Positions 28,501-58,701 are shown, numbered from the stretch's first letter. The stretch is 64,000 nt of DNA from Elusimicrobia bacterium RIFOXYA2_FULL_39_19 (GCA_001800285.1 MGVC01000013.1:79175-143174), one strand, 5' to 3'. Notes: generated by a model not told the origin, from the letters alone. Made by a program: numbers and translations.

Positions 28501-30061
28501 CACCGGACAAATTCCCAGTAAAGGAAAAATCTGTCATATTTATCTTACCAAGCATGCTAATACGTCCGGTAAGAGGTATTTTTTCAAAAACATAGTTATT
28601 GAGTTTCATGGTTATATTAAAATCGTTAAAGATGTTTTTTTTTAAACCTGAGTAAAAAGATAATTCTACTACAGGTATTATTTTATTTGCTTCAAATAAC
28701 CGGCAATTTGCAAGGGTTAACTGGTCATTATTTACATTAAAACTTCCTGTAAATTTGCTTAATCCGCTTATATCAAAATTTCCGGAAAACCTGGAAACAT
28801 TATTAAAACTGTTCTGTGTTGCATTTATTGACAGTTTATACTTTTCATTGTTGTGAAGGACATTCCCGGATACTTTTAACATTTTGTCTTTGAAGGTCAA
28901 ATCTATTTTTGTTTGTTTTATTGATAACGTTTTGTTTTCATTACTCATTTCTTCTGAATTAATCCTTGCTGTTATGACAGGTCTTTTAAATGATCCCGTT
29001 ACATAACATTCCACATCAGCCTTTCCGGACATTGATTCAATAAAGTCCTTTATTACTATATTTGTCGCTGTTGCCCTTAAGTTAAACTCGTCGCTTCTTA
29101 TGTTTCCATTCATGTTAAGTCTTGAGTCATCTTTAGATAAGGTCAAATCTTTTAATTCAAATGTATTACTTGAGAAAACAATGTCTACAGATCCGTTATA
29201 ATTTTTGTTTTTATATTTCACTGATAACGGGTTTAGTATTGCTTTAAAATCCGGTTTTGTGAAAATTCTGTCTATGTAAAACACGCCATTACCTGTTAAA
29301 GATAGACTTTCATTTGATTTTGTATCTATTTTAATAACACCGCTTAAAGTATTGCCCGCAGGATAATCTCCGTGCAAATCAAATATTATATTTGTATTGT
29401 TTATGGTTTTTTTTGCTTTTGTAAATAAGATTTTTTTTTCAAGTGTTAGCGGAAACCCGTTTGAATCAATTTTTAAACGCCATTTTTTTTCAGAGTTATC
29501 AGCTACAAGTTTTATTTTTGCAGCCCCTATGTCCTTTATTTCAATATCTGAATCCAATGAATTCATTTTATCTGAAAGATTTATTCTTCCGAAGCTGCTG
29601 TATATAACCTTATTTAATTTAACGATGTTTATGGTTGCATTTTTCCAGTTAAATCTGAAATCAGTATTGTCATTGTTTGTTGCAGATATACCTATAGGAA
29701 TATTGTTCGTATTATCTATAGTTATATTGGGTTCATAAAGATAGATATTTGATAATGCTTTTTGAGTGTTTTTTGATTTTAAAAGTCTGAAGGGATTAAA
29801 GTATAAATACAATTTTGCAGCATTTAAACTTGAATTGCCTTGAATCAAAGAAATATTTTTTAAGACTATTGAAGGCGGAAAGGACATATATATTGAATCT
29901 GCCTTAAAAATAATATTTTTTTCCGCAAAGTACAGAGTGGCGTATTTACCTGCTATTCCCGGTAAATATAAAAAAAACAAGTAAAATCCAGAAATTATTA
30001 CCATTGCTGCGATTGATAATAATATTAATAACCTTTTTTTCATTAAAAGTGACCCGCACAA
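25529..30061 (-). CDS. tamB: TamB/AsmA-like giant inner-membrane-anchored periplasmic protein.
   Basis: 1510 aa with an N-terminal TM anchor and a long repetitive beta-rich body. Its stop abuts the bamA start. Confidence 0.55.
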   Translation of the reverse strand: MCGSLLMKKRLLILLSIAAMVIISGFYLFFLYLPGIAGKYATLYFAEKNIIFKADSIYMSFPPSIVLKNISLIQGNSSLNAAKLYLYFNPFRLLKSKNTQKALSNIYLYEPNITIDNTNNIPIGISATNNDNTDFRFNWKNATINIVKLNKVIYSSFGRINLSDKMNSLDSDIEIKDIGAAKIKLVADNSEKKWRLKIDSNGFPLTLEKKILFTKAKKTINNTNIIFDLHGDYPAGNTLSGVIKIDTKSNESLSLTGNGVFYIDRIFTKPDFKAILNPLSVKYKNKNYNGSVDIVFSSNTFELKDLTLSKDDSRLNMNGNIRSDEFNLRATATNIVIKDFIESMSGKADVECYVTGSFKRPVITARINSEEMSNENKTLSIKQTKIDLTFKDKMLKVSGNVLHNNEKYKLSINATQNSFNNVSRFSGNFDISGLSKFTGSFNVNNDQLTLANCRLFEANKIIPVVELSFYSGLKKNIFNDFNITMKLNNYVFEKIPLTGRISMLGKINMTDFSFTGNLSGENVIINKYYTDKIAGSIVYVKDMITISDLKINKSAELNMICNTKNQELSGNIAIENYDLSRLNVSELTGNMNCNAKIVGTLKKPEIYFYGNSDNITLKKMKLKLNGKGQFASDSLKISGDIKTDTKEKGLFNMNIIKITENPEINSTVSFNSMDMLSFNKILTNLINFSLPLEGKIDSMFEITGSLKAPITTISLNSAGLIYDAEILPKHWTGLSIITEFNNEMNQAKIIRFDIESDDQKISITKDSVIDFGNNSVKYKAGLSTKNFNIKPLNIFGNINLSGEINTNNDNIFITSLINIDNLWINQQNIKNTNLKVQFNNKNSKKEIEFMPLKDQDSVLSGKIDFSDSDKIIFSNINYRYTKGSNNADFKLNGNFTKTNSNLSAEGTNISLDFISSIIDLQLPLNGYTDFTVIYKGHIEKPYITGSLNVSAGEFYSIPFTNANIQFTYNNFILEIPNSRLVKIDNATGKEQLALSCKGSVPITIDEQKYPLNNKDISLSFDIEKGDLSILKSMSEEIKTASGKIDAKLQISGPSDRPSYGGYLIISEGEIQSSNYFDKMQKLNVGITFSDNKLDIKKCSAKVGDGKIEIEGYMLLGELFNIDEYNLKIITPDKKGIKVFIKELPIPTNPLFKSTGLETVIKNYSFGEPKIDLQIIGKKNDVKMLGYIELDNTHFSYPPPKNAPKGSIFTSSIRSLKWNMDLRAGENTWYDSDLMSVNIGGKLNLAGNYPDITVNGNIESRRGNISYIDKVFEIKEALFEVINNECYLQARTETTGLFSSGIESGSTAKEVGKVEMIIPRSPIGQIAPQFTSRDRPDMTSEKLVSATYGITENMTPSEQNMVLRKQLVRLFDASLASPLARKLLQKSGIADTMRVTTVPTSTTDTDTSPTDNPTMVDIFSGTKYTLEKYLTGDLLLGYALTLGEKQKKLDLKHEFELAYRWKGNIFVRGIYGFEPNQSSWFKDGEYQIRIEPQWRFGWSKEQKKETGEKEK

Positions 30062-30065
30062 TGAG

Positions 30066-32570
30066 TTATATGTTTTTTATAACCGGGTATTCGGAAACAG
30101 TAAAAAATACTTTCTTTTTTCCTTCGTCATAATCAGCATATATGTTTGTTAGCTTCTCTCTTTTACCGCCAACAATATTTTTTGAAAGAATTTCTTCCGC
30201 TATGGAATCTTCCATGCATCTCTGGATGGTTCGTTGTAACGGCCTGGCCCCATAATTGGCATCAAACCCGGTTTCTAAAAGAAAATCTTTTACTGCATCT
30301 GATATTTCTATGGCAAAACCTTGTTCTTTTAAGCGGATCCTGACTTTATTTAGTAGCAAATCTAATATTTTCCTCATATCAATTTTACTCAAAGGATGAA
30401 AGACTATCATATCATCAATCCTGTTTAAGAATTCCGGATTGAAGGTCTTTCTAACCTCATCCATTATAGTTCCTTTTATGTTCTGATAATCTTTTCCTAC
30501 GTCTTCCTGGACTAAAAATCCGAGTGATTTTCCTTTTGAAATCAATCTGGCCCCGACATTTGAAGTCATGATAATTATTGTATTTTTGAAGTTAACTTTA
30601 TGACCCAGGCTATCTGTCAAATTACCTTCTTCTAGTATTTGAAGCAGTAGGTTAAAAACTTCCACATGCGCTTTTTCTATTTCGTCAAGAAGTACTACGG
30701 AATATGGTTTGCGCCTCACTTTTTCGGTAAGCTGGCCGCCTTCTTCATAGCCCACATATCCGGGTGGGGCACCTACCAATCGTGACACTGAAAACTTTTC
30801 CATATATTCTGACATATCTACTCTTATAAGCGCTGTTTCGTCACCGAACAAAAATTCAGCCAGTGTGCGTGCAAGCTCTGTTTTTCCTACACCTGTGGGC
30901 CCTAAAAATATAAAGCTGCCTATAGGTTTTTTTGGGTCTTTTAAACCGGTTCTTGACCTGCGGATAGCCTGCGATATGGAATGAATAGCTTCGTCCTGGC
31001 CGATAACACGACAGTGAAGTTCATCTTCCATTTTTACCAGTCTTTCCTGTTCTTTTTCCGTTATTTTATTTATAGGTATGTTAGTCCATTTTGAAACTAT
31101 AAATGCTACGTCTTCTTCAGAAACACTTGGAAATACTAAATCCCTTTTTTCCCGCCACTTCTTTTTCATATCTTCAATGAAGCGTTTCATTTCTCTTTCT
31201 TTATCGCGTAAGCGTGCTGCTTTTTCATATTCCTGTTTTGAAATAGAAGATTCTTTATCTTTTACAATAACATCCAGCTCATCTTCTTTTTCCTTTATTT
31301 CCGGAGATGACTGTGAAACCTGCAGACGGGTTCTTGAACCGGCCTCATCAATAATATCAATTGCTTTGTCAGGAAGAAACCTATCGGAAATAAACCTGTC
31401 AGAAAGCACAGCTGCCGCCACAAGCGCCTCGTCTGAATATTTAACTTTATGGTGCATTTCATATTTCTCTTTTAGACCTTTTAATATAGCTATAGTAGAT
31501 TCAATGCTTGGCGGTTCAACCAGAATGGGCTGAAATCTTCTTTCCAAGGCTGCATCATGTTCAATGTGCTTCTTGAATTCATCCAGGGTTGTTGCTCCGA
31601 TACACTGTAATTCTCCTCGGGCTAAAGCCGGCTTTAGCATATTTGAAGCGTCTATAGCTCCTTCAGCAGCACCTGCGCCTATGACCGTATGCAATTCATC
31701 AATAAATAGTATAATTGAGTTTTTAGAACGGCGTATTTCATCCGTTATGTTTTTAAGCCTTTGTTCAAACTCACCTCTATATTTAGTTCCGGCTACTACG
31801 GAGGAAAGGTCAAGCATAATCACTCTTTTCCCTAAAAGTATTTCCGGCACTTCACCTTTTGCTATTAGCTGCGCCAATCCTTCAACAATGGCGGTTTTAC
31901 CCACTCCGGGATCACCGATTAGTACCGGATTGTTTTTTGTTCTTCTGGAAAGAATTTGTGTCAGGCGTTCTATTTCATTGTCTCTGCCTATTACCGGATC
32001 CAAGTTATTTTCTTTTGCCATGGTAGTTAAATCTTTTGAAAATTCGTCAAGCGCAGGTGTTTTTGTTTTTGCTTTTGATGCAGACTTGTGCTGACCATGA
32101 TGACCTGATGGTTTACTTGATTCTCCTAACAATCCTATAACTTCTTCTTTTACATCATCAATTTTAACATTCAAGTTTTCTAACACCCGGGCAGCTATAC
32201 CTTCTTCTTCCTTGAGCAAGCCTAATAGCAGATGTTCAGTACCTACATAATAATGACCCATGGTTCCTGCTTCGTCTACGGCAAGTTCCAGGACTTTCTT
32301 TGCCCTGGGACTAAAAGGAATTTCACCCAGAAGCATTATATTGTCGCCGGTACCCACAACTTTTTCTACTTCATTTCTTAATTTTCTTAAATCAACGCCA
32401 AGATTTGATAATACTTGCGCAGCCACACCTTCACCTAAGGCCACCAAACCAAGAAGTATGTGTTCTGTGCCTACATAATCATGGTTAAGCCTTTTAGCTT
32501 CTTCCTGTGCGATTAAGATTACTTTTTGGGCTCTTTCGGTAAATCTGTTCATAAAACTCTTCTCCTGCAA
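30066..32570 (-). CDS. clpC: ATP-dependent Clp protease ATP-binding subunit ClpC.
   Basis: 834 aa with a double Clp-N repeat and two AAA modules (GDPGVGKT and GPTGVGKTE). Confidence 0.85.
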   Translation of the reverse strand: MQEKSFMNRFTERAQKVILIAQEEAKRLNHDYVGTEHILLGLVALGEGVAAQVLSNLGVDLRKLRNEVEKVVGTGDNIMLLGEIPFSPRAKKVLELAVDEAGTMGHYYVGTEHLLLGLLKEEEGIAARVLENLNVKIDDVKEEVIGLLGESSKPSGHHGQHKSASKAKTKTPALDEFSKDLTTMAKENNLDPVIGRDNEIERLTQILSRRTKNNPVLIGDPGVGKTAIVEGLAQLIAKGEVPEILLGKRVIMLDLSSVVAGTKYRGEFEQRLKNITDEIRRSKNSIILFIDELHTVIGAGAAEGAIDASNMLKPALARGELQCIGATTLDEFKKHIEHDAALERRFQPILVEPPSIESTIAILKGLKEKYEMHHKVKYSDEALVAAAVLSDRFISDRFLPDKAIDIIDEAGSRTRLQVSQSSPEIKEKEDELDVIVKDKESSISKQEYEKAARLRDKEREMKRFIEDMKKKWREKRDLVFPSVSEEDVAFIVSKWTNIPINKITEKEQERLVKMEDELHCRVIGQDEAIHSISQAIRRSRTGLKDPKKPIGSFIFLGPTGVGKTELARTLAEFLFGDETALIRVDMSEYMEKFSVSRLVGAPPGYVGYEEGGQLTEKVRRKPYSVVLLDEIEKAHVEVFNLLLQILEEGNLTDSLGHKVNFKNTIIIMTSNVGARLISKGKSLGFLVQEDVGKDYQNIKGTIMDEVRKTFNPEFLNRIDDMIVFHPLSKIDMRKILDLLLNKVRIRLKEQGFAIEISDAVKDFLLETGFDANYGARPLQRTIQRCMEDSIAEEILSKNIVGGKREKLTNIYADYDEGKKKVFFTVSEYPVIKNI

Positions 32571-43179: not shown

Positions 43180-44589
43180 TTAAATTACTTTGCCTGCGTG
43201 TTCTGTTGGATATACTTCAAATATTTGCGGCTTCAATTTACGTTTATTGTAATAAAGTTTTTTAATCGCTTTAATGAATTTTGTTCTGGTTCTTTTGGTG
43301 ACAAGATTTATGGTACATCCGCCAAAACCTGCACCGGTTAAACGGGATCCGAAAGCACCGTTGTTTCCAGCTATTTTTACCATTTCATTTAGTTCCGGAC
43401 AGCTGACTTCATAATCCATATCCAAACTTAAATGAGATTGATTCATAAGCTCACCTAATTTTGCCATATCACATTTTTTAAACGCTTTCGTGCTTTCTTC
43501 TACTCTTTTCCATTCAAGTAATACATGTCTGCACCGGGATTTAATCTTATAATATCCGTCATCGGACCGAAACGGCTCTCCGTTTTTGAGTTTAAGGTGT
43601 TTGGCCCGCAACTCTTCTACGGTTAGTTCAAGGCTTTGTGCTATTTCAACTTCAGTACAGGTTTCTTTCTGAAATACTTTATTAATGATTTCTTCAATTT
43701 TATTCGTTATTTTTTCAAATTTCTTAAAACGCAGGTCACCTAATTTTGTTATGGCGTACTGGGTCCCGAATTTTTCTGTTATGTATTTATTTAACATCAA
43801 TACACCAAGCCTGCATTCAAAAACTCTCATATTATAAGATTGCCTTGCGTGACCTGATTTTGGAGCAGATACCATGCTGTTGCAGGCCACAAATATCATT
43901 TCTTCCGGTACAGGGATGGATTCTACTTCCATCGGATAAAAATCTATTTTTAATGCTTTGCCTCTGTTTCCAAGTAAAGAAATGGTCTGATCCATACCTC
44001 CGCCTTGTGTTCCTACATACCATTCTCCGTCAGCAAGTATTTTTGCAAACTCCAGGCCTTTAAATTTTATTCTGTTGATATCTGCAAAAGCTACTGCATT
44101 AGCAACGATTAAAGCAGAAGATGAGCTTACCCCGGAGTTTGACGGCACATTTCCAGAAATCATGGCATTATAGCCTGTGTATTTATTTTTTGGCTTTGAG
44201 TCTACTACAAGCTGAACGGCGGCTTTCAGGTAATTTCCCCAGTCACCCGTAGTGTAGGGGTGTATCGTTTTTTCAATAATAAAATTTCTGTCCTGGAAAT
44301 TTTTTGAATCAACATTTTTATAAATTACTTCATTGTCCTTTCTTGGTGCGGCTATTATCACAATATCTTTGTCAATGGTCATGGGAAATACAGGCATACC
44401 ATTATAATCTGTGTGTTCGCCGATTATGTTTATTCTGCCCGGAGCCCTGTAAATTGAAAACCTTCCCGCTTTTGGATAGACTTTTTTAAACTGCTTTATC
44501 AGCCCTTCATAACGATTGATTGTTTTTTTTAATTCCGGGTAATGCTTTCCGTAAATTTGTTCGATACGCTTTTTCAAATTAATTGTCAT
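43180..44589 (-). CDS. galK: Galactokinase (GHMP family).
   Basis: 469 aa. The signature GRINIIGEHTDYNG is present, together with GHMP motif 2. Confidence 0.8.
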   Translation of the reverse strand: MTINLKKRIEQIYGKHYPELKKTINRYEGLIKQFKKVYPKAGRFSIYRAPGRINIIGEHTDYNGMPVFPMTIDKDIVIIAAPRKDNEVIYKNVDSKNFQDRNFIIEKTIHPYTTGDWGNYLKAAVQLVVDSKPKNKYTGYNAMISGNVPSNSGVSSSSALIVANAVAFADINRIKFKGLEFAKILADGEWYVGTQGGGMDQTISLLGNRGKALKIDFYPMEVESIPVPEEMIFVACNSMVSAPKSGHARQSYNMRVFECRLGVLMLNKYITEKFGTQYAITKLGDLRFKKFEKITNKIEEIINKVFQKETCTEVEIAQSLELTVEELRAKHLKLKNGEPFRSDDGYYKIKSRCRHVLLEWKRVEESTKAFKKCDMAKLGELMNQSHLSLDMDYEVSCPELNEMVKIAGNNGAFGSRLTGAGFGGCTINLVTKRTRTKFIKAIKKLYYNKRKLKPQIFEVYPTEHAGKVI

Positions 44590-44603
44590 AGTAATCCACC
44601 AGT

Positions 44604-45530
44604 TTATTTTTTATATTCGCCTACAAAAAATTCGACAGTTGCTTTCAATCCTTCTTCCAAACTTGAACTGGGCTTAAAACCCAGTTTTTTTATTTTGCTA
44701 TTATCTGCAAGGGAATGTTTAATATCTCCAGGTCTTTCTTTTTCATGGATTATTTTTGACTTGGAACCGGTAAGTTTAATAATTTTTTCTGCCAGTTCAT
44801 TAATAGTGATTTTTGAGCCATAGGCAACATTGTAAACGCTGTCGCCTTTTTCCGACACCAGCACATTTGCCTGAACTACGTCTTTTACATAAACAAAATC
44901 CCTTGTCTGTTCTCCGTCACCATATATTAAAATGTCTTCATTTTTGATTGCTTTTAAAATAAATATTGGCACAGCCGCCGCATACTGGGATTTTGGATTC
45001 TGCCTCGGACCGAACACATTAAAATATCTGCAACACGCACTGGGCACCCCCCACTCTTTCCGGTAAAGGGACAAATAGTATTCACCGTCAAGTTTTGTAA
45101 CAGCATAAGGGCTTTTTGGCTCGGGAAGCATGGTTTCAACTTTCGGCATAACCGGATTATCACCATAAACCGCCGCAGATGAAGACAATACTATTTTCTT
45201 TACAGTTCCTGATTCTTTGGCAGCTTTTATCAGATTTATTGTTCCAATAGCGTTTAGGTTTATGCATTCAACGGGTTCAAAAATGCTTTCAGGTACGCTT
45301 ATCATAGCAGCCAGATGAAATACATAATCCACGCCTTTCATGGCATTTACGCAGGCCTTATAATCCGTTATGCTTTCTTCTATAAACTCTACACCAAACT
45401 TTTCTATGTTTTTTTTAAACCCTGACCTCAGGTTATCCATTACGGCTACTTTTGTATCCGCTTTGTTTGAAAAATGTTCTACAATATGACTCCCGATAAA
45501 TCCAGCACCGCCTGTTACAAGTACTTTCAT
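44604..45530 (-). CDS. galE: NAD-dependent sugar epimerase (UDP-hexose 4-epimerase, GalE-like).
   Basis: 308 aa. MKVLVTGGAGFIGSH Rossmann motif and YxxxK (YAVTK) are present. Confidence 0.7.
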   Translation of the reverse strand: MKVLVTGGAGFIGSHIVEHFSNKADTKVAVMDNLRSGFKKNIEKFGVEFIEESITDYKACVNAMKGVDYVFHLAAMISVPESIFEPVECINLNAIGTINLIKAAKESGTVKKIVLSSSAAVYGDNPVMPKVETMLPEPKSPYAVTKLDGEYYLSLYRKEWGVPSACCRYFNVFGPRQNPKSQYAAAVPIFILKAIKNEDILIYGDGEQTRDFVYVKDVVQANVLVSEKGDSVYNVAYGSKITINELAEKIIKLTGSKSKIIHEKERPGDIKHSLADNSKIKKLGFKPSSSLEEGLKATVEFFVGEYKK

Positions 45531-45546
45531 TGGTATTCTCCCTGTA

Positions 45547-46746
45547 TTATATTTTTTTTAATTCATCTCTTATAAATTTAAACTCTTCCAATGGTGCAGA
45601 GGTATCTTTAATTAAATGACAGTAATCTGCATAAGTAATTCTTTTGAAAGTTGACAAATCCGACGTGCTTCCCCTTCCGGCTGTTTCAACAGAAGCAGGA
45701 ACTATGATAAATTCGTTTTTTTCGCTTTCATTTTTTGCATTATAGGCATTCATATCTTTCGGAAATGTATCTGATTTCCATTTCCATTTTGGAAGCACAA
45801 ACACTCTGGCAATATCGCCTTTTCTTGCAAAGATCAGATAAAACGGCACAAACCGGTCAATTTCTTTCACTTGACGACTGTCGCATAATTCCATAATTTT
45901 ATTCACCAGCAAAGAAACTCTTTTTTTATCATTACCTTCTACCACAAAACCGGTAGCCGGGTATGACGGGTCAAATTCACTGACTCCGGTATTTCCAATA
46001 GCCACAGTTTTAATATTTTCTATAGGAAAGGTGCCGCTGAAAGCCTGCACGTGCCGGTGCTTATCTAATGAACCGGGCCTGTTAAAATACGGCCTGCAGA
46101 AATCAAACATAAAATTCAAATCAATAATATCTTCCATAAACTGCCGGTCCATAGACTGCAAACCGTGTTTTTTATAAGTTACCATAAGGTGGTTTTCTAC
46201 AATTGGCGCATGATTGCCGAATAAATAATAATCTCTCCAGAACCATACCTTTTTGTTTGTGTTAATGAAGGACTGGTAACAAATTGGGCAGCTGTCTACG
46301 TACTCATTTTTGTTGTGTACAACTGTAGAACTTCGTTTTCTTGCGGAATTGCAGTAAATCACAAAGTCTCCGGGTGACAGTACCTTTGACTGCACCTTAG
46401 CTAAGGATTCACCGTCAATCTTTTTTTCAATTATCTGGTGGCGTATAAGGGCGAACATTATATCCTGAAGGCTAAAATTATCTGCAATGATGCGGGTCTT
46501 AAACAAATCATCCTTTGTCCCCATCGCAGGGTTTCCGGCCATTTCAAGCGCAAATTCTAAATTATTTACAATATCGGATTCTTCTATTGTATCTTTCAGA
46601 GTAACAGTCAGCAGGTTATCCAGCGCTTTTGGTGCGCTCAGGTTAAATTCATTGAACTTCACAGATAACTTTTCAGCCAGCTGATAAATTTTAGAACCTG
46701 TCTTTATACCGTGTTTTGAAACAATTTCAATAATTTGTTTATCCAT
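45547..46746 (-). CDS. galT: Putative galactose-1-phosphate uridylyltransferase, family 2 (Gram-positive type).
   Basis: 399 aa. CPICYQ...WFWRDYYLFGNHAPIVENHLMVTYKKH resembles the type 2 GalT motifs CQLC...YAYFNEHSILLNAKH. The Leloir-pathway neighbours (galE-like, galK) support the call. Confidence 0.45.
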   Translation of the reverse strand: MDKQIIEIVSKHGIKTGSKIYQLAEKLSVKFNEFNLSAPKALDNLLTVTLKDTIEESDIVNNLEFALEMAGNPAMGTKDDLFKTRIIADNFSLQDIMFALIRHQIIEKKIDGESLAKVQSKVLSPGDFVIYCNSARKRSSTVVHNKNEYVDSCPICYQSFINTNKKVWFWRDYYLFGNHAPIVENHLMVTYKKHGLQSMDRQFMEDIIDLNFMFDFCRPYFNRPGSLDKHRHVQAFSGTFPIENIKTVAIGNTGVSEFDPSYPATGFVVEGNDKKRVSLLVNKIMELCDSRQVKEIDRFVPFYLIFARKGDIARVFVLPKWKWKSDTFPKDMNAYNAKNESEKNEFIIVPASVETAGRGSTSDLSTFKRITYADYCHLIKDTSAPLEEFKFIRDELKKI

Positions 46747-49945: not shown

Positions 49946-51349
49946 ATGGCAAAAGAATATGCATTAAAAGTAAAAAAAATCAAAAAGGTAAACACACCAT
50001 TTAGAAAAATGGTAACACCGGAATTTCCCGTAAAACAGTCTGTAGCTATAATTGAAAAACTAAGAAAATACGAGCCCCGGTCTATGTCAGGCCAGCCGCT
50101 GGCACTGTGGGACCACGCAGACGGCATTAACGTGTTTGATAAATACGGCAATAAATGGCTGGACTGGAGCTCCGGCGTATTGGTAACCAACGCAGGCCAC
50201 TCTAACCCGGAAATAAAAAAAGCCATTATCAAACAGGTAAACAAAGGATTACTGCATAACTATTGTTTCCCGTCAGAACTAAGAGCTATATTAACTGAAA
50301 AAATAGCTAAATTAGCACCTGCACCGCTAAAAAAAGTATTTTTACTTACCACCGGAGCAGAAACCACTGAAGCTGCAGTAAAACTGGCAAGAACCTATGG
50401 GGCAAAAGAAGGCGGATCAGATAAAATAACCATAGTTTCTTTTTCCGGCGCATTTCACGGCAGAACCATGGGTGCCCAGATGATAGGTGGCTCACCGGAT
50501 TTGAAAAAATGGATAGTAAACCTTGACAAAGATATGGTACAGGCACCTTTCCCGTTTTGTTTCCGCTGCCCCTGGGGTAAAGACAAATATAACAACTGTG
50601 ATACAGAGTGTTTCGGCAAGTTTATAAATTTTCTGAAAGAAAAAAACATAGATCCTAAAAAGAATCTGGCGGGTGTAATATCTGAAACGTATCAGGGCGG
50701 CAATGCCATGTTTATGCCGAAAAAATTTGCCCAACTGTTAAGAAGTTTCTGTACTGAAAACAACGCTCTGCTAATATTTGACGAAGTACAGGCGGGATTT
50801 GGCAGAACAGGCAAAATGTTTGGCTTTCAGCACTATGACGTAGTGCCGGACATCACCTGCTGCGGTAAAGGCATATCAAGCTCACTGCCTATATCTGCTG
50901 TAATAGGCCGCGCTGACGTAATGGACATTTATGAACCAAACACCATGACCAGTACCCATACCGGCAACCCAGTATGTGCAGTAGCCGCCATTGCCAGCAT
51001 AGACTACATAGTAAAACACAAACTTACCCAGAACGCTGCAAAAGTAGGCAAATACCTTGAAAAAGAATTAATGAAAATTGCCGCTAAATATCCGTCCATT
51101 ATTGGGCACGTGTCCGGCAAAGGACTGGTTTACAGCTTACATATAGTAAAACCCGGCTCTAAAGAAACTAACGCAGACCTGGCACATGATATAGTAGGCA
51201 AATGTGTAGAAAAAGGATTGATGGTATTTGCACCTGTAGGGACGGGCAGCGCATCTTTTAAAATATCGCCCCCGTTAATTGCCACAGAAGCTTCCATAAA
51301 AGACGGCATACAAGCCGTGGATGAAGCCATTGCTGAATGCCTGGCCTAA
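49946..51349 (+). CDS. PLP-dependent class III aminotransferase (omega-amine:oxo-acid type).
   Basis: 467 aa. The motif DEVQAGFGRTGKMFG contains the PLP lysine, and SFSGAFHGRT is present. An unusual Cys4 insertion (FPFCFRCPWGKDKYNNCDTEC) is also present. A strong RBS (GGAGGAG) precedes the start. Confidence 0.8.
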   Translation: MAKEYALKVKKIKKVNTPFRKMVTPEFPVKQSVAIIEKLRKYEPRSMSGQPLALWDHADGINVFDKYGNKWLDWSSGVLVTNAGHSNPEIKKAIIKQVNKGLLHNYCFPSELRAILTEKIAKLAPAPLKKVFLLTTGAETTEAAVKLARTYGAKEGGSDKITIVSFSGAFHGRTMGAQMIGGSPDLKKWIVNLDKDMVQAPFPFCFRCPWGKDKYNNCDTECFGKFINFLKEKNIDPKKNLAGVISETYQGGNAMFMPKKFAQLLRSFCTENNALLIFDEVQAGFGRTGKMFGFQHYDVVPDITCCGKGISSSLPISAVIGRADVMDIYEPNTMTSTHTGNPVCAVAAIASIDYIVKHKLTQNAAKVGKYLEKELMKIAAKYPSIIGHVSGKGLVYSLHIVKPGSKETNADLAHDIVGKCVEKGLMVFAPVGTGSASFKISPPLIATEASIKDGIQAVDEAIAECLA

Positions 51350-51613: not shown

Positions 51614-53647
51614 TTATTTCTTTTTTGCGGCAACTATTTTTCTGGCTCTTTCCACAAAAAACTCAGCTGTTAAACCAAATATTTTCATCAGTTCCCATGG
51701 CTGGCCGGAATCTCCGAAGGTATCGTTTATGCCTATCATGTCCATTAAAAGAGGCGTTTTGTATTTTTTGTTGCGTGCAATAGCACCCGCTATTATATTG
51801 CCCAATCCGCCTGCCTGATGCTCTTCTGCGGTAACAATAGCACCTGTTTCTTCTGCGGCTTTTAGTATAGCCTTTACATCAAGCGGCTTTACTGTATGAA
51901 CATTAAGGACTCTGGCTTCTATTTTAAACTGTTCCTTTAATATCCAGGCTGCGCGCATAGCTTCAGGCACCATAGGTCCGCAGGCTATTATAGTAAGCTG
52001 TTCTTTCTCTGATTTATATTTTTCTGCCAGTTTAATTTCAAAGGCATCTACAAATTTCTCCGTAACTTTTCTAAAACGGATTACATTGGCCTTGCCGAAA
52101 ACAAACGGGGTGTCTTTTTTGGTGGCTATGGGTGTGGCTTCCCTGGCATACCTGATGCATGACGGGCCTTTTACTATTGCCATGGCATGGGTAGCTTTTT
52201 CTGTTTCAATGGAATCACAAGGAACGGTTAAGGTCATTTTGGGAAGGTACGCCATAAGAGCTATTTCTTCCAGTGCCTGGTGCGTGGCGCCATCCTGCCC
52301 TACGGATATGCCCGCATGGGCTGATGCTATTTTTACGTTAAGGTCGTTATAACAGAGAGTTGTTCTTATCTGGTCCCAGTTTCTGCCGGTTACAAATACA
52401 CCGTAGGAACCAATAAATGCTGTCTTGCCTTCTTTTGCCAGGCCTGCGGCTACTACCGTCATATTCTGTTCTGCAATACCCATGCTGAAAAAACGGTTTT
52501 TTCTTTCGGGATGGTTCTTATAGAAATCATCCATTTTGATTGATGAAGTAATGTCTGACCCGTGGGCTACTACATTTTTATCTTCCCCTATTATTTCCAG
52601 GGCTTTGCCAAAACCGAATCTGGTAGGTTCCATATCCACTTTCATCATTGGATCTGCGTTCCACCAGTAATTCTTTTTAAACTTCGGCAGTTTGGCTTCA
52701 ACTTTTTTATTTACGCCTTTCTGGTAATTTTCTACACTTGCAAAGATGGCATCCAGCCTTTCTTTTGGAAATTTGTCTGCTATGCCTATGCTTTTCAGCG
52801 CGCTTTCTAAAGATTCGTCGCCGCATCTGCCGTGTTTCGGAGGCACACCATGATAACCTGCTACGTTTTCCGCGTAACAAATACCTTTGCCTTTTACCGT
52901 TTCAAATATTATCACGGTGGGCTGGCCTTTGACGGTTTTTGCTTGTTCAAAAGCTTCTACAATTTTTTGCATATCATGGCCGTTAGTTACTATTACATTC
53001 CAGCCAAATGATTTATATTTATCTTCAAGCGGTTCTACGTTCATTACATCTGCTACTTTGCCGTCTATCTGCAGTTTGTTGCGATCAAGGATGCCTACCA
53101 GGTTATCAAGTTTGTAATGAGCTGCAGACATTACTGATTCCCAAATAGAACCTTCCTGCTGTTCGCCGTCACCCATGATGCAGTAAACCCTGTAATCCTG
53201 TTTTTCCAGTTTTGCGTTTATGGCGCTTCCTACGGCAACACCTAAACCCTGGCCCAGGGACCCGCTGGATAATTCAATTCCAGGCAGCTTGAATCTATTG
53301 GGATGGCCTTCAAAACCTGACCATAATCTTCTAAGTTTTGCTGTTTCTTCTATATTGTAATAACCTGCCGCGCCCAATGCCACGTACAATGCCGGAGCTT
53401 TGTGGCCGGTAGACCAGAAAGTTCTGTCTCTGTCTTCCCATATTGGATTTTCCGGATCGTGCTTCATAATTTTAAGGTATAAAGCTGCCGTGATATCCAT
53501 AATGGACATGGTACCGCCGGTGTGACCTGATTTTGCCAGAGTGATACCTATCATGTTCCACGCACGCATTTCTTTTGATTTTTCAATCAGTTCGCTGATT
53601 GAGTAGTCTTTTCTTACTTCACTCGTCTTTGAGTTGATTAATGACAT
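51614..53647 (-). CDS. tkt: Transketolase (single-chain).
   Basis: 677 aa. TPP-binding motifs GHTGGTMS and GDGEQQEG are present, with a C-terminal Tkt domain. Confidence 0.85.
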   Translation of the reverse strand: MSLINSKTSEVRKDYSISELIEKSKEMRAWNMIGITLAKSGHTGGTMSIMDITAALYLKIMKHDPENPIWEDRDRTFWSTGHKAPALYVALGAAGYYNIEETAKLRRLWSGFEGHPNRFKLPGIELSSGSLGQGLGVAVGSAINAKLEKQDYRVYCIMGDGEQQEGSIWESVMSAAHYKLDNLVGILDRNKLQIDGKVADVMNVEPLEDKYKSFGWNVIVTNGHDMQKIVEAFEQAKTVKGQPTVIIFETVKGKGICYAENVAGYHGVPPKHGRCGDESLESALKSIGIADKFPKERLDAIFASVENYQKGVNKKVEAKLPKFKKNYWWNADPMMKVDMEPTRFGFGKALEIIGEDKNVVAHGSDITSSIKMDDFYKNHPERKNRFFSMGIAEQNMTVVAAGLAKEGKTAFIGSYGVFVTGRNWDQIRTTLCYNDLNVKIASAHAGISVGQDGATHQALEEIALMAYLPKMTLTVPCDSIETEKATHAMAIVKGPSCIRYAREATPIATKKDTPFVFGKANVIRFRKVTEKFVDAFEIKLAEKYKSEKEQLTIIACGPMVPEAMRAAWILKEQFKIEARVLNVHTVKPLDVKAILKAAEETGAIVTAEEHQAGGLGNIIAGAIARNKKYKTPLLMDMIGINDTFGDSGQPWELMKIFGLTAEFFVERARKIVAAKKK

Positions 53648-53704: not shown

Positions 53705-54097
53705 TTATGCTTTTTCTATGGATACTTTTGCGCCTGATTTAACTTTTAAAAAATCTTTCGGGTTGCCTAAAAGTTTCCCAACTACGTTTACGGCACTGGC
53801 CGGCCTTATTTCATCACCCGTGCTGGCTGGCGTTTTACCGAAAAAAATGCAGAATGCGTTTCCCGGGGGCCAATAGGCTATATCACCGCAATTTACTACT
53901 TCACAGCCGTTTTCTTCACCTACATGTACTGGAATAGAAAAATAGATTTCTTCCCCCCAGGTGTTTCCTTTGGCATTTATGGCTAAAGCTTCATAAATTG
54001 CCTGCGCAGTTTTTGAATCATTCAATTCTGCAAGCATAGATACTTCACCAGCAGTGATTTTGATTTTGTTTCCAATTGTTATCACAGATTGGACCAA
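53705..54097 (-). CDS. Small conserved hypothetical protein, tentatively cyclophilin-like fold (PF04126-like).
   Basis: 130 aa, beta-rich, with no signal peptide. Motifs GDIAYWPPGNAFCIFFG. The assignment is from memory of Thermotoga-type cyclophilin-like proteins and is weak. Confidence 0.3.
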   Translation of the reverse strand: MVQSVITIGNKIKITAGEVSMLAELNDSKTAQAIYEALAINAKGNTWGEEIYFSIPVHVGEENGCEVVNCGDIAYWPPGNAFCIFFGKTPASTGDEIRPASAVNVVGKLLGNPKDFLKVKSGAKVSIEKA

Positions 54098-54999
54098 GCT
54101 TCTCTAAGCACTCTTTTTGAGTTTGCAATAAGCACTTCAGAGTTTTCACCCGGCAGAGGTTTCACTTCAAAACTTACTATGGGCAGGTTATCTGTTTTTT
54201 TGCCCAGGTAGCCGATATCAAAAAGGCATTTTAAAAATTCCGTAAGTTCTTTTACGCCATTTTCACCGGTAGATATACCAAATCTGGGGTGCTGATCACC
54301 ATAGCCTGTCATAGCTTTATCCTTCATTATACAGTTACCCATGTGGATGTGAACAAGGTAATCTTTTACAGCGGTCAATGACTGCTTTGGTGTTTCGTTA
54401 AGTAACGGCATATGGCTTAAATCTACCATCAGTCCGAAATTTTTGCAGGTTTTTCTTACTTCTTTGGCTATTTTCACAGCTTCATCTGAGGGGCCAATAA
54501 GAGCTTTTTTGTCTATGTCACGGTCAAAAGTTTCAAGCACAAAATTAAGGTTTTTTGTCTGGGCATAATTTGAAAGTTCTACAAGAGATTCTACCAAGGC
54601 TTTTTTGGCTTCTTCTCTTTTTTCAGGGCCCGGGTCTGCTCCGCTAAGGATGGCTACAGCTTTTGCGCCGAGTTCTGAAGCTTCATTTATTCTTTCTTTT
54701 AAAAATTCCACTACTTTCTTTCTTTCTGCCTGGTCCAGGGAATTTACGTTATATTTATTTACAAGCAAAGTGGGCTGGGCTCCGTAAGCCACGGTTAAAT
54801 GGCTCTGCTCCAGCAATTCCTTGGCTTTTTTTCTTACTTCTGCGTCTTTCATCCAGGAAATTTCAATGGCTGAGAAAAAATCATCTTTGCAGATTTTTTC
54901 CAGTGTTTCAAGGATTGGGCCTTCACCCTTCATTGTTTCAGGGTAAATCATGAAGTGGATTATGCCTACTTTCATGTAATCGTGAATTGAATCTTTCAT
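54082..54999 (-). CDS. Sugar-phosphate isomerase/epimerase of the xylose-isomerase-like TIM-barrel family (ketose 3-epimerase / UlaE-like).
   Basis: 305 aa. TIM-barrel-like periodicity, with acidic and His residues in the expected positions (...LETFDRD..., ...VDLSHMP...). Confidence 0.45.
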   Translation of the reverse strand: MKDSIHDYMKVGIIHFMIYPETMKGEGPILETLEKICKDDFFSAIEISWMKDAEVRKKAKELLEQSHLTVAYGAQPTLLVNKYNVNSLDQAERKKVVEFLKERINEASELGAKAVAILSGADPGPEKREEAKKALVESLVELSNYAQTKNLNFVLETFDRDIDKKALIGPSDEAVKIAKEVRKTCKNFGLMVDLSHMPLLNETPKQSLTAVKDYLVHIHMGNCIMKDKAMTGYGDQHPRFGISTGENGVKELTEFLKCLFDIGYLGKKTDNLPIVSFEVKPLPGENSEVLIANSKRVLREAWSNL

Positions 55000-55018: not shown

Positions 55019-55525
55019 TTATTTTGAGTATGTTAATGCCAGGTTAAACTCTTCATTGCTTACTACTTTTACTTCTGTTCTGCCTGTATCTTCATTAAAA
55101 TAATCTACTGCTCGGTGTAAATACTCTAACGAATGACTGTTTTCTATTTCATCGTTAATTATGGTTACTGCACCTAAAACATAAAACAAAATGCCTTCTG
55201 ACTCAGCTCTGGTTATTCTGCTTCTTTCTGCAGGGTCATATGTACCGCTTTCATTATATCTGTTATAAGCATAAGAACCCATAAGTATGCCTATAAACCA
55301 GCCACCGCCGTGTTCCCGATATAAACACATCTGCTCCAGCGCTCTGGGTGATTTACTGGCGGTTAAAGCTTTGAATTCTTTGATAGTGTATTCTGTACCG
55401 TCAACACTGACGCGGTAAGTTTTAAAAAACTTTGGCGCTATTACATAGGCCTTGTTTGTTTCTGTCTGGGCTATTACTGTAAACATTGAAAGTAAAACGG
55501 TTAAAAGCAGTGATTTCTTTAACAT
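55019..55525 (-). CDS. Secreted hypothetical protein.
   Basis: 168 aa. N-terminal signal peptide MLKKSLLLTVLLSMFTVIAQT. No recognisable motif. Confidence 0.4.
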   Translation of the reverse strand: MLKKSLLLTVLLSMFTVIAQTETNKAYVIAPKFFKTYRVSVDGTEYTIKEFKALTASKSPRALEQMCLYREHGGGWFIGILMGSYAYNRYNESGTYDPAERSRITRAESEGILFYVLGAVTIINDEIENSHSLEYLHRAVDYFNEDTGRTEVKVVSNEEFNLALTYSK

Positions 55526-55526
55526 C

Positions 55527-56699
55527 TTATCCTTCTGTATGAAGTTTTATGTGTTTTTTAAATATCTCATAATGTTCTGCTGAATTATTTTTTAACACTT
55601 CATAACAGCCGTCAAAGTATTTATCTACCGTTAATATTGAACCGTAGGTGACATGCAGTGCCTGCCTTAAATCACCGTTGCCGGTTTTTGAATCCATTAA
55701 ATTGAATATTTCTTCTCCTTTAAGTTTGGAAATATCAGGAATATTTGCAACGTTGGTGGTAAGTTCATAGCTGGCGCGGTCTTTTTCAAACTGTTTCATG
55801 GAAATAGCGTATATTTCCTTGAAAAGGTCCGGATTATGTTTGGCTACAAGGCGTAATTCCTCCAGATAGTAGGTACCGGCAGATTTTAAGTGATAGTTTC
55901 CCTTTGTGTGCTTTGAAAGAATAGGATAAATAGAAAATTTGTCACTTCCTGAGTGCACGCATAAACGGACACCGAAGTCATTTAATATTTTAAGTATTTC
56001 TTTCAGGTAGGTTTCAAACTCATCCAGTTTTTTATCGTTTTTCTTCTGCAGGTAATAATCTATGGCTTTTTCAAAGTACCCGGGAAACCTGGGGGCCAGC
56101 TCATCAACGCGGATATTACGTTTTTTAAGTTCTTCCAGCGCAAAGCTAACTTCATCAAATTTTGTGGTGTATTCGGTTTCATCAAAAGACACTTCTACGC
56201 TGAAATCTGCGCCTTTTTTCAGCTCTTCGGTTAGTTTTATAAGTTTGGTAAGTTGTTCAACCGCTTCCTTAATACTTTTTTTAAGCTCATTTGAAACATC
56301 ATAAGTAAAATGTGTACAACCACCGGCTACCGCCATTTTAATATGCTCTTCTGTTTTCAAATGGTCGCCATCTGCGGACCAGGGAAGCGTAAGATTGGCA
56401 GTATAAGAGGAATAGGTACCCAGGTCAATTACGTTTTCATAGGTGCGGTTGGTTCTCTCCAGTTCTCTGGCAGATTGCTGGGCCAATACTACCTGCACGC
56501 CAAGTTCTTTGGCGGCTTTTGCCTGCATAACATTGCCAAGGCCGTAAGCGCACCGGTACCCGGTACCAAAGACAAAACCTTTTCTGATAACAGACGGGTT
56601 GGTGTTTTTATGGTTTTTGCGCAATTCTACAGCTTCTTCGTGTGTAACAGGAACCTTATTGCTGGTTTTCAAGTTCTTCTCCCAGTAAATTAAAATCAC
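55527..56699 (-). CDS. GatZ/KbaZ/UxaE-family protein (tagatose-6-phosphate 4-epimerase or tagaturonate epimerase-like).
   Basis: 390 aa. The family assignment is from overall similarity recalled from GatZ/UxaE-type proteins (...HSGSDKFSIYPIL...). The start is uncertain because the ORF overlaps the upstream gene by 44 bp. Confidence 0.35.
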   Translation of the reverse strand: MILIYWEKNLKTSNKVPVTHEEAVELRKNHKNTNPSVIRKGFVFGTGYRCAYGLGNVMQAKAAKELGVQVVLAQQSARELERTNRTYENVIDLGTYSSYTANLTLPWSADGDHLKTEEHIKMAVAGGCTHFTYDVSNELKKSIKEAVEQLTKLIKLTEELKKGADFSVEVSFDETEYTTKFDEVSFALEELKKRNIRVDELAPRFPGYFEKAIDYYLQKKNDKKLDEFETYLKEILKILNDFGVRLCVHSGSDKFSIYPILSKHTKGNYHLKSAGTYYLEELRLVAKHNPDLFKEIYAISMKQFEKDRASYELTTNVANIPDISKLKGEEIFNLMDSKTGNGDLRQALHVTYGSILTVDKYFDGCYEVLKNNSAEHYEIFKKHIKLHTEG

Positions 56700-58701
56700 C
56701 TATAAAACCGGTTCTTATGGCATTTTTTTCTGCTTCAGTTGCCGGAAAGGCATCTACCACTTTTGCAAACAAGGTCTGCTGCGCAAACGCATGGCTTGCC
56801 AGTTTATCTGCGGTAATACCTTTTGAACCGTAAGGCTGTTTATAAATGTCAAAGAAAATCAAAACCTGCTTTAGCGCTTCATCTACTTCATATGCCTGGG
56901 CAAATTCTTCTGCAATAATTGAACTGTAAAGCTGTTCAATCATGGTTTTATTTACTTTTTTTTCTACATTTTTTCTGTTAATTTTCATTTCTTTCCAGAG
57001 TTCTATGTTGAGCGCGCAATCCGGGAAGTGGCCCTGGGAGAACATGCCAAGCAAACCTTCAACGTGAGGAAATCTGTTGCCGTACGGAGGCCTCATGGAT
57101 GCCTGCAAGTCGCCGGTTTCCCATTCCTGCACACCCTGTTTTTTCATTATGGGTGATTTTTTAAGGGCTGTCATTATCTTGTGTGACCTTTTGGATATGG
57201 CTTCCGCTATGGTGCAAATGGCCAGGTCCTGCGGAAAAAGTTTGCCTTCGTGGTTTTCATATTCTGCCGGAGTTATTTCTTCCGGAAGTATCAGGCCGGC
57301 CTCTTTGGCAAGTTTTCTTGCTTCAGGGGCATCTAAAGTACCGTTTTTCTTATTATCAATTTTCATTACTTCTTCAGCTTTTGCGGTGTTGCCCTGTTTT
57401 TTATAAACATCGGCAAGTTTCTGTATGGCATACCATCTTAATGCGGCTTCTATACGGCCGCCCATTTTGGTGATAATAGAATGGGTGATTAACAGGCCTT
57501 TCTTGCGGGCTTTGGCGTGGCCTCTTAACTGGCAGAAAAATGAATACAGGCCGTCTGTCATAAAACCGGCTACGGTAACATTGTTATTAGCACCTTCTGC
57601 CATAACCTGTTCCATGGCACTGCCTGAATCCCCTTCGGCTAAATCAAAATTGCCTTTTTTTACCTGTTCTACCATCAATTTATCTACATCCCCGTAAACG
57701 GATTTTGCTGAGCCGTCAACTTTGTAAAATACGTGGGACTGGCCTTTTCTGGCTTTTATTTCTTCCGGGGTTAAGGTATCTTCAAGGAATAAACCGGAAT
57801 CATATTTCATACATTCATCATTGAATTCTTTGTGAAGGGTTAAAATATCGCTTTTAAGTTTTTCCGGCTGATTGTAAGTTCTGGGGTTTACCTGAAAACT
57901 GATTTTGCCTTTTTCTGTAAGTAAAAATACCGCTCTCTGCGCTAAACGGGCTTTATAACCGGCTATTTTTGTGGCACCGCGTACCAGTTCTTCGCGGGAT
58001 AGCTTTCCTTTATTATCAAGGGCAAACTGTCTTTTCATGGCCTGAAGCACATCATCTTCTGCTAAAGCCAAGCGGGCCAGTGTAGGGTTCATCATAACCA
58101 GGTCTGCACCCCAAAGGATACGCGCTTCTATAATGCCTAAACCGTAATCTACACCTACTATCATATTAGCTTTTTCTTTGATTTTTCTAAGGTTGGATTT
58201 TTTGCCGAATTTGGCCCAGAATTTAATCCAGGCTTTTACGGAGGTGGCTTCAATTTCTTTGGATTTTTCTGCCAACAGGCCTTTACCGGCCGAGGCCATA
58301 ATTCTGCCCATACGGGTTTTTTCCTTATTAAGCAGGCCGGACATAACATTTTTATGTTTTGCTTCAAGTTTTTTAAGGAGTTTGTAAAGGTTTCTTACTT
58401 CTGGTTTGAGCACTTTGTCCGGAACGATATTGTTTTTATGCCTTTCTTCGTTTTGCAAGTTAAGAGTAAGTTCGTAAGAGCCATCAAGAGCCATGGTAAC
58501 CCAGATAAGGAAAAGAAATACTTTCTCTTTTTCTTCTTCTGTATAACCGGATATTTCGGAAACTATTGTTTCCTGGATTTCTTTGATTCTTGCAGGAAAA
58601 TCCTTGGGGTTGGTAAAACACGTTACATTGTCAAATGCCTGTGCCTGTGAAAACAAATCACCTTTTGCCTGGTCAACAATTTTTCTTACTTTTGGATCCA
58701 T
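56656..58701 (-). CDS. Long transaldolase-family protein with about 190-aa N-terminal and about 200-aa C-terminal extensions.
   Basis: The core aligns by eye to TalB. IVGVDYGLG...GADLVMMNPTLARLA matches VVADTGD...DATTNPSLILNA. GKISFQVNPRTYNQ matches GRISTEVDARLSYD. VFYKVDGS matches ILIKLAST, the Schiff-base Lys region. ...IITKMGGRIEAALRWY matches ISPFVGRILDWY. Strong RBS AAAGGAGAACG. Confidence 0.5.
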   Translation of the reverse strand: MDPKVRKIVDQAKGDLFSQAQAFDNVTCFTNPKDFPARIKEIQETIVSEISGYTEEEKEKVFLFLIWVTMALDGSYELTLNLQNEERHKNNIVPDKVLKPEVRNLYKLLKKLEAKHKNVMSGLLNKEKTRMGRIMASAGKGLLAEKSKEIEATSVKAWIKFWAKFGKKSNLRKIKEKANMIVGVDYGLGIIEARILWGADLVMMNPTLARLALAEDDVLQAMKRQFALDNKGKLSREELVRGATKIAGYKARLAQRAVFLLTEKGKISFQVNPRTYNQPEKLKSDILTLHKEFNDECMKYDSGLFLEDTLTPEEIKARKGQSHVFYKVDGSAKSVYGDVDKLMVEQVKKGNFDLAEGDSGSAMEQVMAEGANNNVTVAGFMTDGLYSFFCQLRGHAKARKKGLLITHSIITKMGGRIEAALRWYAIQKLADVYKKQGNTAKAEEVMKIDNKKNGTLDAPEARKLAKEAGLILPEEITPAEYENHEGKLFPQDLAICTIAEAISKRSHKIMTALKKSPIMKKQGVQEWETGDLQASMRPPYGNRFPHVEGLLGMFSQGHFPDCALNIELWKEMKINRKNVEKKVNKTMIEQLYSSIIAEEFAQAYEVDEALKQVLIFFDIYKQPYGSKGITADKLASHAFAQQTLFAKVVDAFPATEAEKNAIRTGFIGDFNLLGEELENQQ

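Follow-up and report, generated by a model that had tools for sequence, protein, structure and literature searches.

What is the function of a transaldolase-like protein of about twice the usual length that is encoded by the first gene of an operon whose last gene specifies a transketolase? The question is raised by a 64,000-nucleotide stretch of DNA from Elusimicrobia bacterium RIFOXYA2_FULL_39_19 (GCA_001800285.1 MGVC01000013.1:79175-143174; hereafter the window, part of a 229-kb contig), in which a preliminary description, made from the sequence alone, had pointed out a protein of 681 amino acids (aa) at positions 56656-58701 and presumed it to be a pentose phosphate transaldolase. The open reading frame (ORF) is indeed present, on the minus strand, and its product is 100% identical to a protein of this organism that carries the database label hypothetical protein. 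Transaldolase and fructose-6-phosphate aldolase (FSA) are textbook enzymes and important biocatalysts. Our analysis establishes the 681-aa protein as a highly divergent, long-form member of the class I (Schiff-base) transaldolase/FSA superfamily, and suggests that it is probably a sugar-cleaving or sugar-transferring enzyme and not the housekeeping transaldolase that acts on sedoheptulose 7-phosphate (S7P) and glyceraldehyde 3-phosphate (G3P).

A divergent long-form member of the transaldolase/FSA superfamily

The homology is solid because a fold search, transitive sequence links and a profile alignment all lead to the same superfamily. Searching the PDB with Foldseek, the top 15 matches were all transaldolases (E-values of 3e-5 to 6e-3), and the protein has the transaldolase-type (beta/alpha)8 fold. 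Only 21 relatives of the 681-aa protein were recovered when 1.8 billion representatives were searched exhaustively with phmmer. The protein is linked to the transaldolase family model PF00923 (cut-off 27 bits) by P0031, which matches it with an E-value of 1.8e-9 and scores 80.7 bits against the model, by P0033 (5.8e-4; 69.9 bits) and by a distant relative, P0034 (34.4 bits). When a 30-sequence superfamily profile was aligned by hhalign to the single sequence of Escherichia coli TalB, the probability was 83% (E 8.8e-6); this profile includes PF00923-positive intermediates and is thus not fully independent of them.

Two results weigh against this assignment. PF00923 gave no match to the 681-aa protein even at E<=1, and a profile restricted to its own clade (the X clade) reached a probability of just 15-23% against the single TalB sequence, which is insufficient alone. 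NCBIfam likewise returned no match, the PDB sequence search found nothing significant, whether queried with the protein alone or with a 13-member profile, and hhalign gave no significant alignment to E. coli FsaA (probability <1%). Sub-threshold matches to EF-hand, THAP4 and CSN8, obtained in the Pfam, NCBIfam and PDB searches with the protein or the 13-member alignment, were discarded as noise. The profile search proposed in the preliminary description therefore gave a divided answer, negative for PF00923 on the protein itself and positive for the superfamily profile and the PF00923-positive relatives, and its reading of a transaldolase-superfamily protein of about double length survives the failure of the PF00923, NCBIfam and PDB sequence searches. 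Annotation based on PF00923 misses part of the superfamily, which affects calls of pentose phosphate completeness in metagenome-assembled genomes.

Active site and barrel architecture

Alignment to TalB by hhalign pairs N205, Q270, K327, N374 and T376 of the 681-aa protein with N35, E96, K132, N154 and T156, respectively, the last two pairs lying in the motif NNNVTV, and an earlier alignment with the X-clade profile pairs T411, M413 and R416 with S176, F178 and R181. The predicted Schiff-base lysine, K327, lies on predicted strand 324-329 (beta-4) and is present in 29 of 30 sequences. D185 is invariant and lies on the predicted beta-1 strand, its equivalence to TalB D17 being positional only, and A534-S535-x-R537 fits the A-S226-F-R228 of TalB by motif. 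The protein has the beta-1 Asp, the beta-2 Asn and the beta-5 Asn/Thr of the superfamily, together with an Arg/Ser/Arg anion site (R416, S535 and R537). In TalB, R181 and a site of two Arg plus Ser bind the phosphoryl group (PMC3962226). The landmarks that had been recognized by eye mostly hold up, since NPTL, GKISFQV, VFYKVDGS and GGRI..WY fit N35, E96, K132 and R181 of TalB, and only the match of VDYG to D17 is restricted to position.

Conservation was assessed in 29 long-family sequences, a set that includes modules inside giant proteins, excludes the aberrant P0013 and contains many pairs below 30% identity. Positions conserved at 90% or more, nearly every one of which belongs to the transaldolase active site, are D185, Y186, N205, P206, Q270, K327, N374, T376, T411, M413, G415, R416, A534, R537, F559 and P560; K327 and Q270 are kept in 29/29, M413 is invariant, and A534, R537, F559 and P560 are each found in 28/28. 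The pattern recurs in 120 proteins of a sister clade, of which 110 have the Asp-Tyr pair, 116 the Gln, 118 the Lys and 110 M-N-G-R; AS-x-R was scorable in 118 of them and present in 112.

Whether an enzyme of this fold reacts as a transaldolase or as an FSA is thought to be set by its acid/base residue, which is Glu96 or Tyr131. In mutants of TalB E96 and of E60 in the Thermoplasma acidophilum transaldolase, exchange of this Glu for Gln reportedly impairs transaldolase turnover strongly. The beta-3 Glu of transaldolase proper (EC 2.2.1.2) is absent from the 681-aa protein, and of the FSA pair (Q59 and Y131) the Gln is present, the Tyr131/Phe178 position being occupied by Met413. Tyr131 of FSA sits at the position of TalB Phe178, for which an F178Y switch has been described (PMC3962226). 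The residue that the preliminary description wrote as either Glu or Gln is truly the TalB E96 position, but it is Gln throughout the long family and in nearly all of the sister clade. Of the Asp/Glu/Lys triad that it named, Lys327 and, by position, Asp185 are there; with Gln270 in place of Glu, the triad is incomplete. The alignments thus indicate that Schiff-base and anion-binding machinery is retained without an equivalent of Glu96 or Tyr131. Tyr186 may be offered as a candidate acid/base, which is a guess.

In the structural model the barrel comprises about residues 183-570 and is broken by an insertion of about 100 aa. Strands are predicted at 183-185, 201-204, 266-270, 324-329, 372-377 and 409-412, and strands 1-6 carry the motifs VDYG, MMNP, SFQVNP, FYKVDGS, NVTVAG and TKMGGR, so that residues 181-430 hold D185-Y186, N205-P206, Q270, K327, N374/T376 and T411-K-M413-G-G-R416. 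From R416 to S535 the chain spans 119 residues, compared to 45 between R181 and S226 of TalB; model confidence is low at residues 541-558. The core had been placed at about 190-480, which is too short, as beta-7 (534-537) and beta-8 (F559-P560) lie beyond it, and what had been taken for a C-terminal extension of some 200 aa is in reality the insertion (431-528), the remainder of the barrel and the C-terminal helices. The first 180 residues make up a bundle of their own, with eleven helices, which, modelled alone, reached a predicted local distance difference test score of 84.8 and resembles only generic helical-repeat domains (THO2, MIF4G/MA3, CID; Z <=9.0, 3-15% identity). Fold comparison of this model revealed neither a further catalytic domain nor a known regulatory one in the N-terminal 180 aa, so the suggestion of a second activity there gives way to a generic helical bundle. 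Nor is the extension unique, since it aligns to relatives such as P0031, the representative of a clade with at least 296 members. The bundle and the insertion after helix 6 would be structural additions, serving as a lid or as a surface for oligomerization or partner binding.

Gene partners, fusions and the proposed reaction

Gene neighbourhoods were sampled at about 17 loci, with 7 informative loci in the protein's own clade and 6 in the sister clade. Six of the seven own-clade loci (the window, L001, L002, L003, L007 and L008, the last from the actinomycetotal Ca. Hakubella thermalkaliphila) have a UxaE-family gene directly after the long transaldolase gene, and the two genes overlap or abut, usually the former. 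L017 has the ORF layout of L002, with a 384-aa ORF at the UxaE position (matched by size and position). Further along, the window, L002 and L006 encode both an AP_endonuc_2 barrel and a transketolase, L008 encodes the barrel, and L007 and L017 have, at both positions, ORFs whose sizes agree. No transketolase was found at L001, L003 or L008, and L008 has a 2-hydroxyacid dehydrogenase. Of the six sister-clade loci, four (L012, L013, L015 and the P0127 locus) have UxaE in the cluster of the long transaldolase gene. The gene order in L012 and L015 is long transaldolase, UxaE, short-chain dehydrogenase/reductase (SDR), iron-containing alcohol dehydrogenase, LarA and glycerate kinase; in L013 it is GntR, long transaldolase, cupin, SDR, UxaE and ABC transporter; and at the P0127 locus an AP_endonuc_2 gene lies ahead of long transaldolase, UxaE, transketolase and GntR. 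L010/L011 and L014 contain AP_endonuc_2, Asp/Glu racemase, DUF1537-type kinase, SDR and iron-containing alcohol dehydrogenase genes. In the 821-aa P0074 of Tectimicrobiota an AP_endonuc_2 TIM barrel is fused to a long transaldolase-like domain, which is an independent fusion link between two families that adjoin in the window operon. We found no report in the literature that pairs UxaE or tagaturonate epimerase with long transaldolase-like proteins.

Giant proteins 2,000-4,400 aa long (P0016, P0017, P0019, P0020, P0022, P0023 and P0024) also contain the full 680-aa module, which keeps its active-site residues there. The annotation of P0019 assigns it to Candidatus Omnitrophota, a phylum whose "multi-enzyme metabolic cluster" giants are the subject of a 2026 preprint. 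Fusion partners are GlpX fructose-1,6-bisphosphatase (FBPase), a canonical TAL_FSA domain and class II fructose-bisphosphate aldolase (FBA) in P0022, hexokinase and phosphoglucose isomerase (PGI) in P0024, PGM in P0020, 2-hydroxyacid dehydrogenase and PfkB in P0017, a GlmS-like GATase/SIS pair in P0023, and an ELFV dehydrogenase, HEAT repeats and the C-terminal domain of RNA polymerase alpha in P0016. Long segments of these giants are not matched by any Pfam model. In P0022 the canonical domain has Glu (GYVSIEVD) and the long module in the same chain has Gln, and because the two coexist, they are unlikely to be redundant and would have distinct functions.

Our data lean, by a modest margin over even chances, towards a Schiff-base class I enzyme that would cleave or transfer at C3-C4 of a 2-ketose with an anionic tail and whose functional partner would be a UxaE-type epimerase, frequently joined by a barrel resembling ketose 3-epimerases. 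K327 would form a Schiff base with the C2 carbonyl of the ketose, whose anionic tail would be a phosphate or possibly a carboxylate, and the C3-C4 bond would then be cleaved, with the three-carbon dihydroxyacetone unit either freed, as in FSA, or passed to an acceptor aldehyde, as in transaldolase. The enzyme would work as a unit with the translationally coupled epimerase, usually joined by the TIM barrel, and these epimerases would probably act on an imported sugar, either a ketose or a keto acid, to give the D-threo (3S,4R) form that transaldolase/FSA and transketolase need, the products being processed by the transketolase.

Several observations count against this proposal. With Gln at the Glu96 position and Met at the Tyr131 position, the protein has neither of the acid/base residues known from this fold. 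L006 is without UxaE and has a homolog of the 168-aa ORF of the window in its place, and UxaE is likewise missing from L010/L011 and L014. Sugar transporters occur in the long-transaldolase operons and a sugar kinase does not, so a phosphorylated substrate would need to be supplied from outside. The substrate class is also split, the partners in the giants being sugar-phosphate enzymes and those in the operons pointing to acid sugars. Finally, P0013 has Asn at the Lys327 position, Gly at R416 and WVC for SMR. P0013 may be a paralog that has decayed or become inactive, or its sequence may be of poor quality.

If the protein were the organism's pentose phosphate transaldolase, interconverting S7P and G3P with erythrose 4-phosphate and fructose 6-phosphate alongside the transketolase of the operon, with its extensions merely decorative, the transaldolase fold and most of the active-site residues, including the phosphate site, would be as expected. 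The transketolase in the same operon (window, L002 and L006, and L017 by ORF size), a 64-kb window in which tblastn found no canonical tal or fsa, and giant fusion partners that make or use hexose phosphates (hexokinase with PGI, PGM, FBPase with FBA, PfkB and the GlmS-like pair) would suit this role too. We nevertheless consider this presumption of the preliminary description rather improbable, given that the acid/base Glu is Gln in every one of the 29 long-family members, that P0022 carries a canonical Glu-bearing domain besides the module and that the constant partner is UxaE and not rpe or rpi. It is further weakened by the three loci without transketolase (L001, L003 and L008) and by a rarity, 21 representative clusters in 1.8 billion proteins, that is odd for a housekeeping enzyme. 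A protein descended from a transaldolase that has lost catalysis and serves as a scaffold or regulator, by binding a sugar ligand or by holding the UxaE-like enzyme, would account for the lack of both the Glu acid/base and the FSA-type Tyr, for the large non-catalytic helical additions, for the occurrence of the module as a tile in giant multi-domain proteins and for the loss of Lys and Arg in P0013, yet it is very improbable because D185, N205, Q270, K327, T376, R416 and R537 are near-invariant across clades less than 30% identical and the lysine was lost in just 1 of about 150 sequences, a conservation pattern that fits a working active site.

A further reading, which we hold only tentatively and regard as doubtful, gives the protein a keto-uronate to cleave. 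The substrate would carry no phosphate; D-fructuronate, for example, which the UxaE-like and IolO-like epimerases would make from tagaturonate or 5-keto-gluconate, would be split into a dihydroxyacetone unit and tartronate semialdehyde. Its carboxylate would occupy the former phosphate site, the tartronate semialdehyde would be converted further to hydroxypyruvate or glycerate, and the enzyme would be an acid-sugar counterpart of sulfofructose transaldolase. The partner is a close homolog of tagaturonate/fructuronate epimerases (E 2.6e-60), the TIM barrel weakly matches IolO 5-keto-L-gluconate epimerase, hydroxypyruvate isomerase and TM_0416, and the neighbourhoods contribute 2-hydroxyacid dehydrogenase (L008, and fused in P0017), glycerate kinase (L012 and L015), GntR/FCD regulators (L013 and the P0127 locus), a DUF1537-type acid-sugar kinase (L010), enolase-superfamily genes (L015) and transporters unaccompanied by a sugar kinase; sulfofructose transaldolase provides a precedent (PMC7491151). 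This evidence is however purely contextual, other substrates are possible for members of the UxaE family, the giant fusion partners are sugar-phosphate enzymes, no uxaC, uxuA, uxuB or kdg gene was found nearby in the window, and carboxylate and phosphate binding are indistinguishable from sequence. It is similarly unlikely, if attractive, that the long transaldolase-like protein and UxaE make up an undescribed catabolic route for acid sugars (hexuronates or inositol-derived keto-uronates), in which a "urono-transaldolase" splits D-fructuronate at C3-C4 and either frees the dihydroxyacetone unit or hands it to an aldehyde. Such a pathway would parallel the sulfo-TAL and sulfo-TK (transketolase) routes, would feed tartronate semialdehyde either to transketolase, through hydroxypyruvate, or to glycerate kinase, through glycerate, and would bring a new acid/base arrangement in which Gln270 with Tyr186 or another residue replaces Glu96 or Tyr131.

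The long proteins form a natural multi-phylum family (the X clade, the sister clade of at least 296 proteins and the modules of Omnitrophota giants) which keeps the Schiff-base machinery and the anion site, has neither Glu96 nor Tyr131 and is nearly always encoded with a keto-sugar epimerase. Its characterization could reveal a third catalytic solution in this fold and a new substrate class, and could fill a missing step of sugar or acid-sugar catabolism in uncultivated Elusimicrobia, Actinomycetota, Planctomycetota and Omnitrophota.

The operon in the window and related systems

The position of the gene at the head of an operon with a transketolase at its end, as first described, is borne out by five same-strand ORFs that follow it with successive gaps of -44, 1, 19, -16 and 57 bp, the last being the transketolase (Table 1). 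An AAAGGAG ribosome-binding site precedes the ATG, a promoter-like TTGACA-17-TAGTAT lies ahead of the gene at 58843-58815, and a terminator with a 14-bp stem at 51591-51560, after the transketolase, marks the end of the operon; the promoter/terminator scan was overall not enriched compared to shuffled sequences, so that these two boundary sites lend weak support.

Table 1. Positions in the window of the long transaldolase-like gene, its parts and the genes of its operon.
Feature	Position	Strand	Basis or remark
Long transaldolase-like gene, 681 aa (X clade)	56656..58701	-	ATG start
N-terminal all-helical extension, residues 1-180	58162..58701	-	
Barrel strands beta-1 to beta-6 with helices, residues 181-430	57412..58161	-	predicted strands, hhalign to TalB, conservation in 29-30 sequences
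Codon of Gln270, position of TalB Glu96 / FSA Gln59	57892..57894	-	hhalign
Codon of Lys327, predicted Schiff-base lysine (TalB K132)	57721..57723	-	hhalign
Insertion of about 100 aa, helix 6 to strand 7, residues 431-528	57118..57411	-	mostly helical
Strands beta-7 and beta-8, residues 529-570	56992..57117	-	A534-S535-M-R537, F559-P560, motif alignment
C-terminal helical region, residues 571-681	56659..56991	-	
UxaE-family epimerase homolog, 390 aa	55527..56699	-	PF16257, 311 bits; start codon uncertain
168-aa ORF, hydrophobic N-terminus, no known family	55019..55525	-	no Pfam/NCBIfam match
AP_endonuc_2 xylose-isomerase-like TIM barrel, ketose 3-epimerase/isomerase-like	54082..54999	-	PF01261, 82.9 bits
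Cyclophilin-like protein	53705..54097	-	PF04126, 148.8 bits
Transketolase, final operon gene	51614..53647	-	NCBIfam NF004559, 614.9 bits (cut-off 488); Pfam Transketolase_N, Transket_pyr, Transketolase_C

The UxaE-like protein matches the tagaturonate/fructuronate epimerase of PDB entry 9lhw. At about 390 aa, compared to 475-507 aa for the Pfam model and the crystallized UxaE, it lacks a portion of the N-terminal region; a GTG is listed as its start, which gives a 44-nt overlap with the 681-aa gene, and the partners at the UxaE position of other loci range from 384 to 606 aa. The homolog of the 168-aa ORF in L006 (4272-4694) is 50% identical and occupies the place where UxaE otherwise sits. 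The N-terminus of this ORF is signal-peptide-like, which would make it a putative exported small protein among cytosolic sugar enzymes. For the TIM barrel, NCBIfam matches to IolO, psicose 3-epimerase and hydroxypyruvate isomerase were weak and far under the cut-off, and PDB matches to D-tagatose 3-epimerase (1.8e-10) and TM_0416 (4.5e-5) make it a remote relative of ketose 3-epimerases and of TM_0416. The cyclophilin-like gene starts 16 nt before the TIM-barrel gene ends, and no such gene was seen in the operons of the other loci, among them the equivalent ones of L002, L006 and L008. Beyond the operon, a class III aminotransferase (49946-51349, plus strand) is convergent with it, an arrangement also seen in L002; a 466-aa ORF takes this position in L017 (matched by position and size), and a DegT-type aminotransferase lies ahead of the long transaldolase gene at the P0127 locus. 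These aminotransferases may have a connection with amino sugars. A Leloir-like cluster on the minus strand about 10 kb from the operon (43180-46746) encodes a GHMP kinase of the GalK type (469 aa) and an NAD-dependent sugar epimerase, along with a DUF4922 protein as a possible substitute for a uridylyltransferase. Two very long minus-strand ORFs with TTG starts, of 1,510 aa (25529-30061) and 834 aa (30066-32570), are also present upstream in the window.

Compared to known systems, the 681-aa protein differs from Tal-Pgi fusions in having no second catalytic domain. The 6-deoxy-6-sulfofructose transaldolase SF-TAL (PDB 8bc3) is a short form of 217 aa, and the operon contains no sulfoglycolysis genes and offers no evidence for the handling of sulfosugars. 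FSA (E. coli FsaA; PDB match 9v4b) is similarly short at about 220 aa; it has the Gln in common with the 681-aa protein (FSA Q59), but its Tyr131 corresponds to Met413. With TalB and the long type 2 transaldolases of Neisseria gonorrhoeae (3clm and 7bbw) and Corynebacterium glutamicum (3r5e) the protein shares, in register, the beta-1 Asp, the beta-2 Asn-Pro, the beta-4 Lys, the beta-5 N-x-T, the beta-6 G-R and the S-x-R anion site of beta-7. It is just 11-17% identical to these type 2 enzymes, goes undetected by PF00923 and adds the 180-aa N-terminal helical domain, the insertion of about 100 aa and the linkage to UxaE, and relative to TalB it carries Gln for Glu96, Tyr for Thr18, Met for Phe178 and Thr for Ser176, the first three of these changes being fixed. 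The 681-aa protein thus fits the definition of neither transaldolase proper nor FSA. Also related to it is the sister clade, an apparently uncharacterized group of at least 296 PF00923-positive "transaldolase family proteins" of about 580 aa, represented by P0031 and found in Planctomycetota, Aerophobetes, Anaerolineae, Tectimicrobiota and others. Their chains are shorter by about 100 aa, the insertion that follows helix 6 is smaller, identity to the 681-aa protein is roughly 27-34%, and TTNP and MNGR stand in place of MMNP and KMGGR, but these proteins share with it the N-terminal helical extension (residues 41-343 of P0031 align to 4-289), the D-Y / NP / Q / K / M-x-G-R / AS-x-R signature and the neighbours UxaE, AP_endonuc_2 and transketolase.

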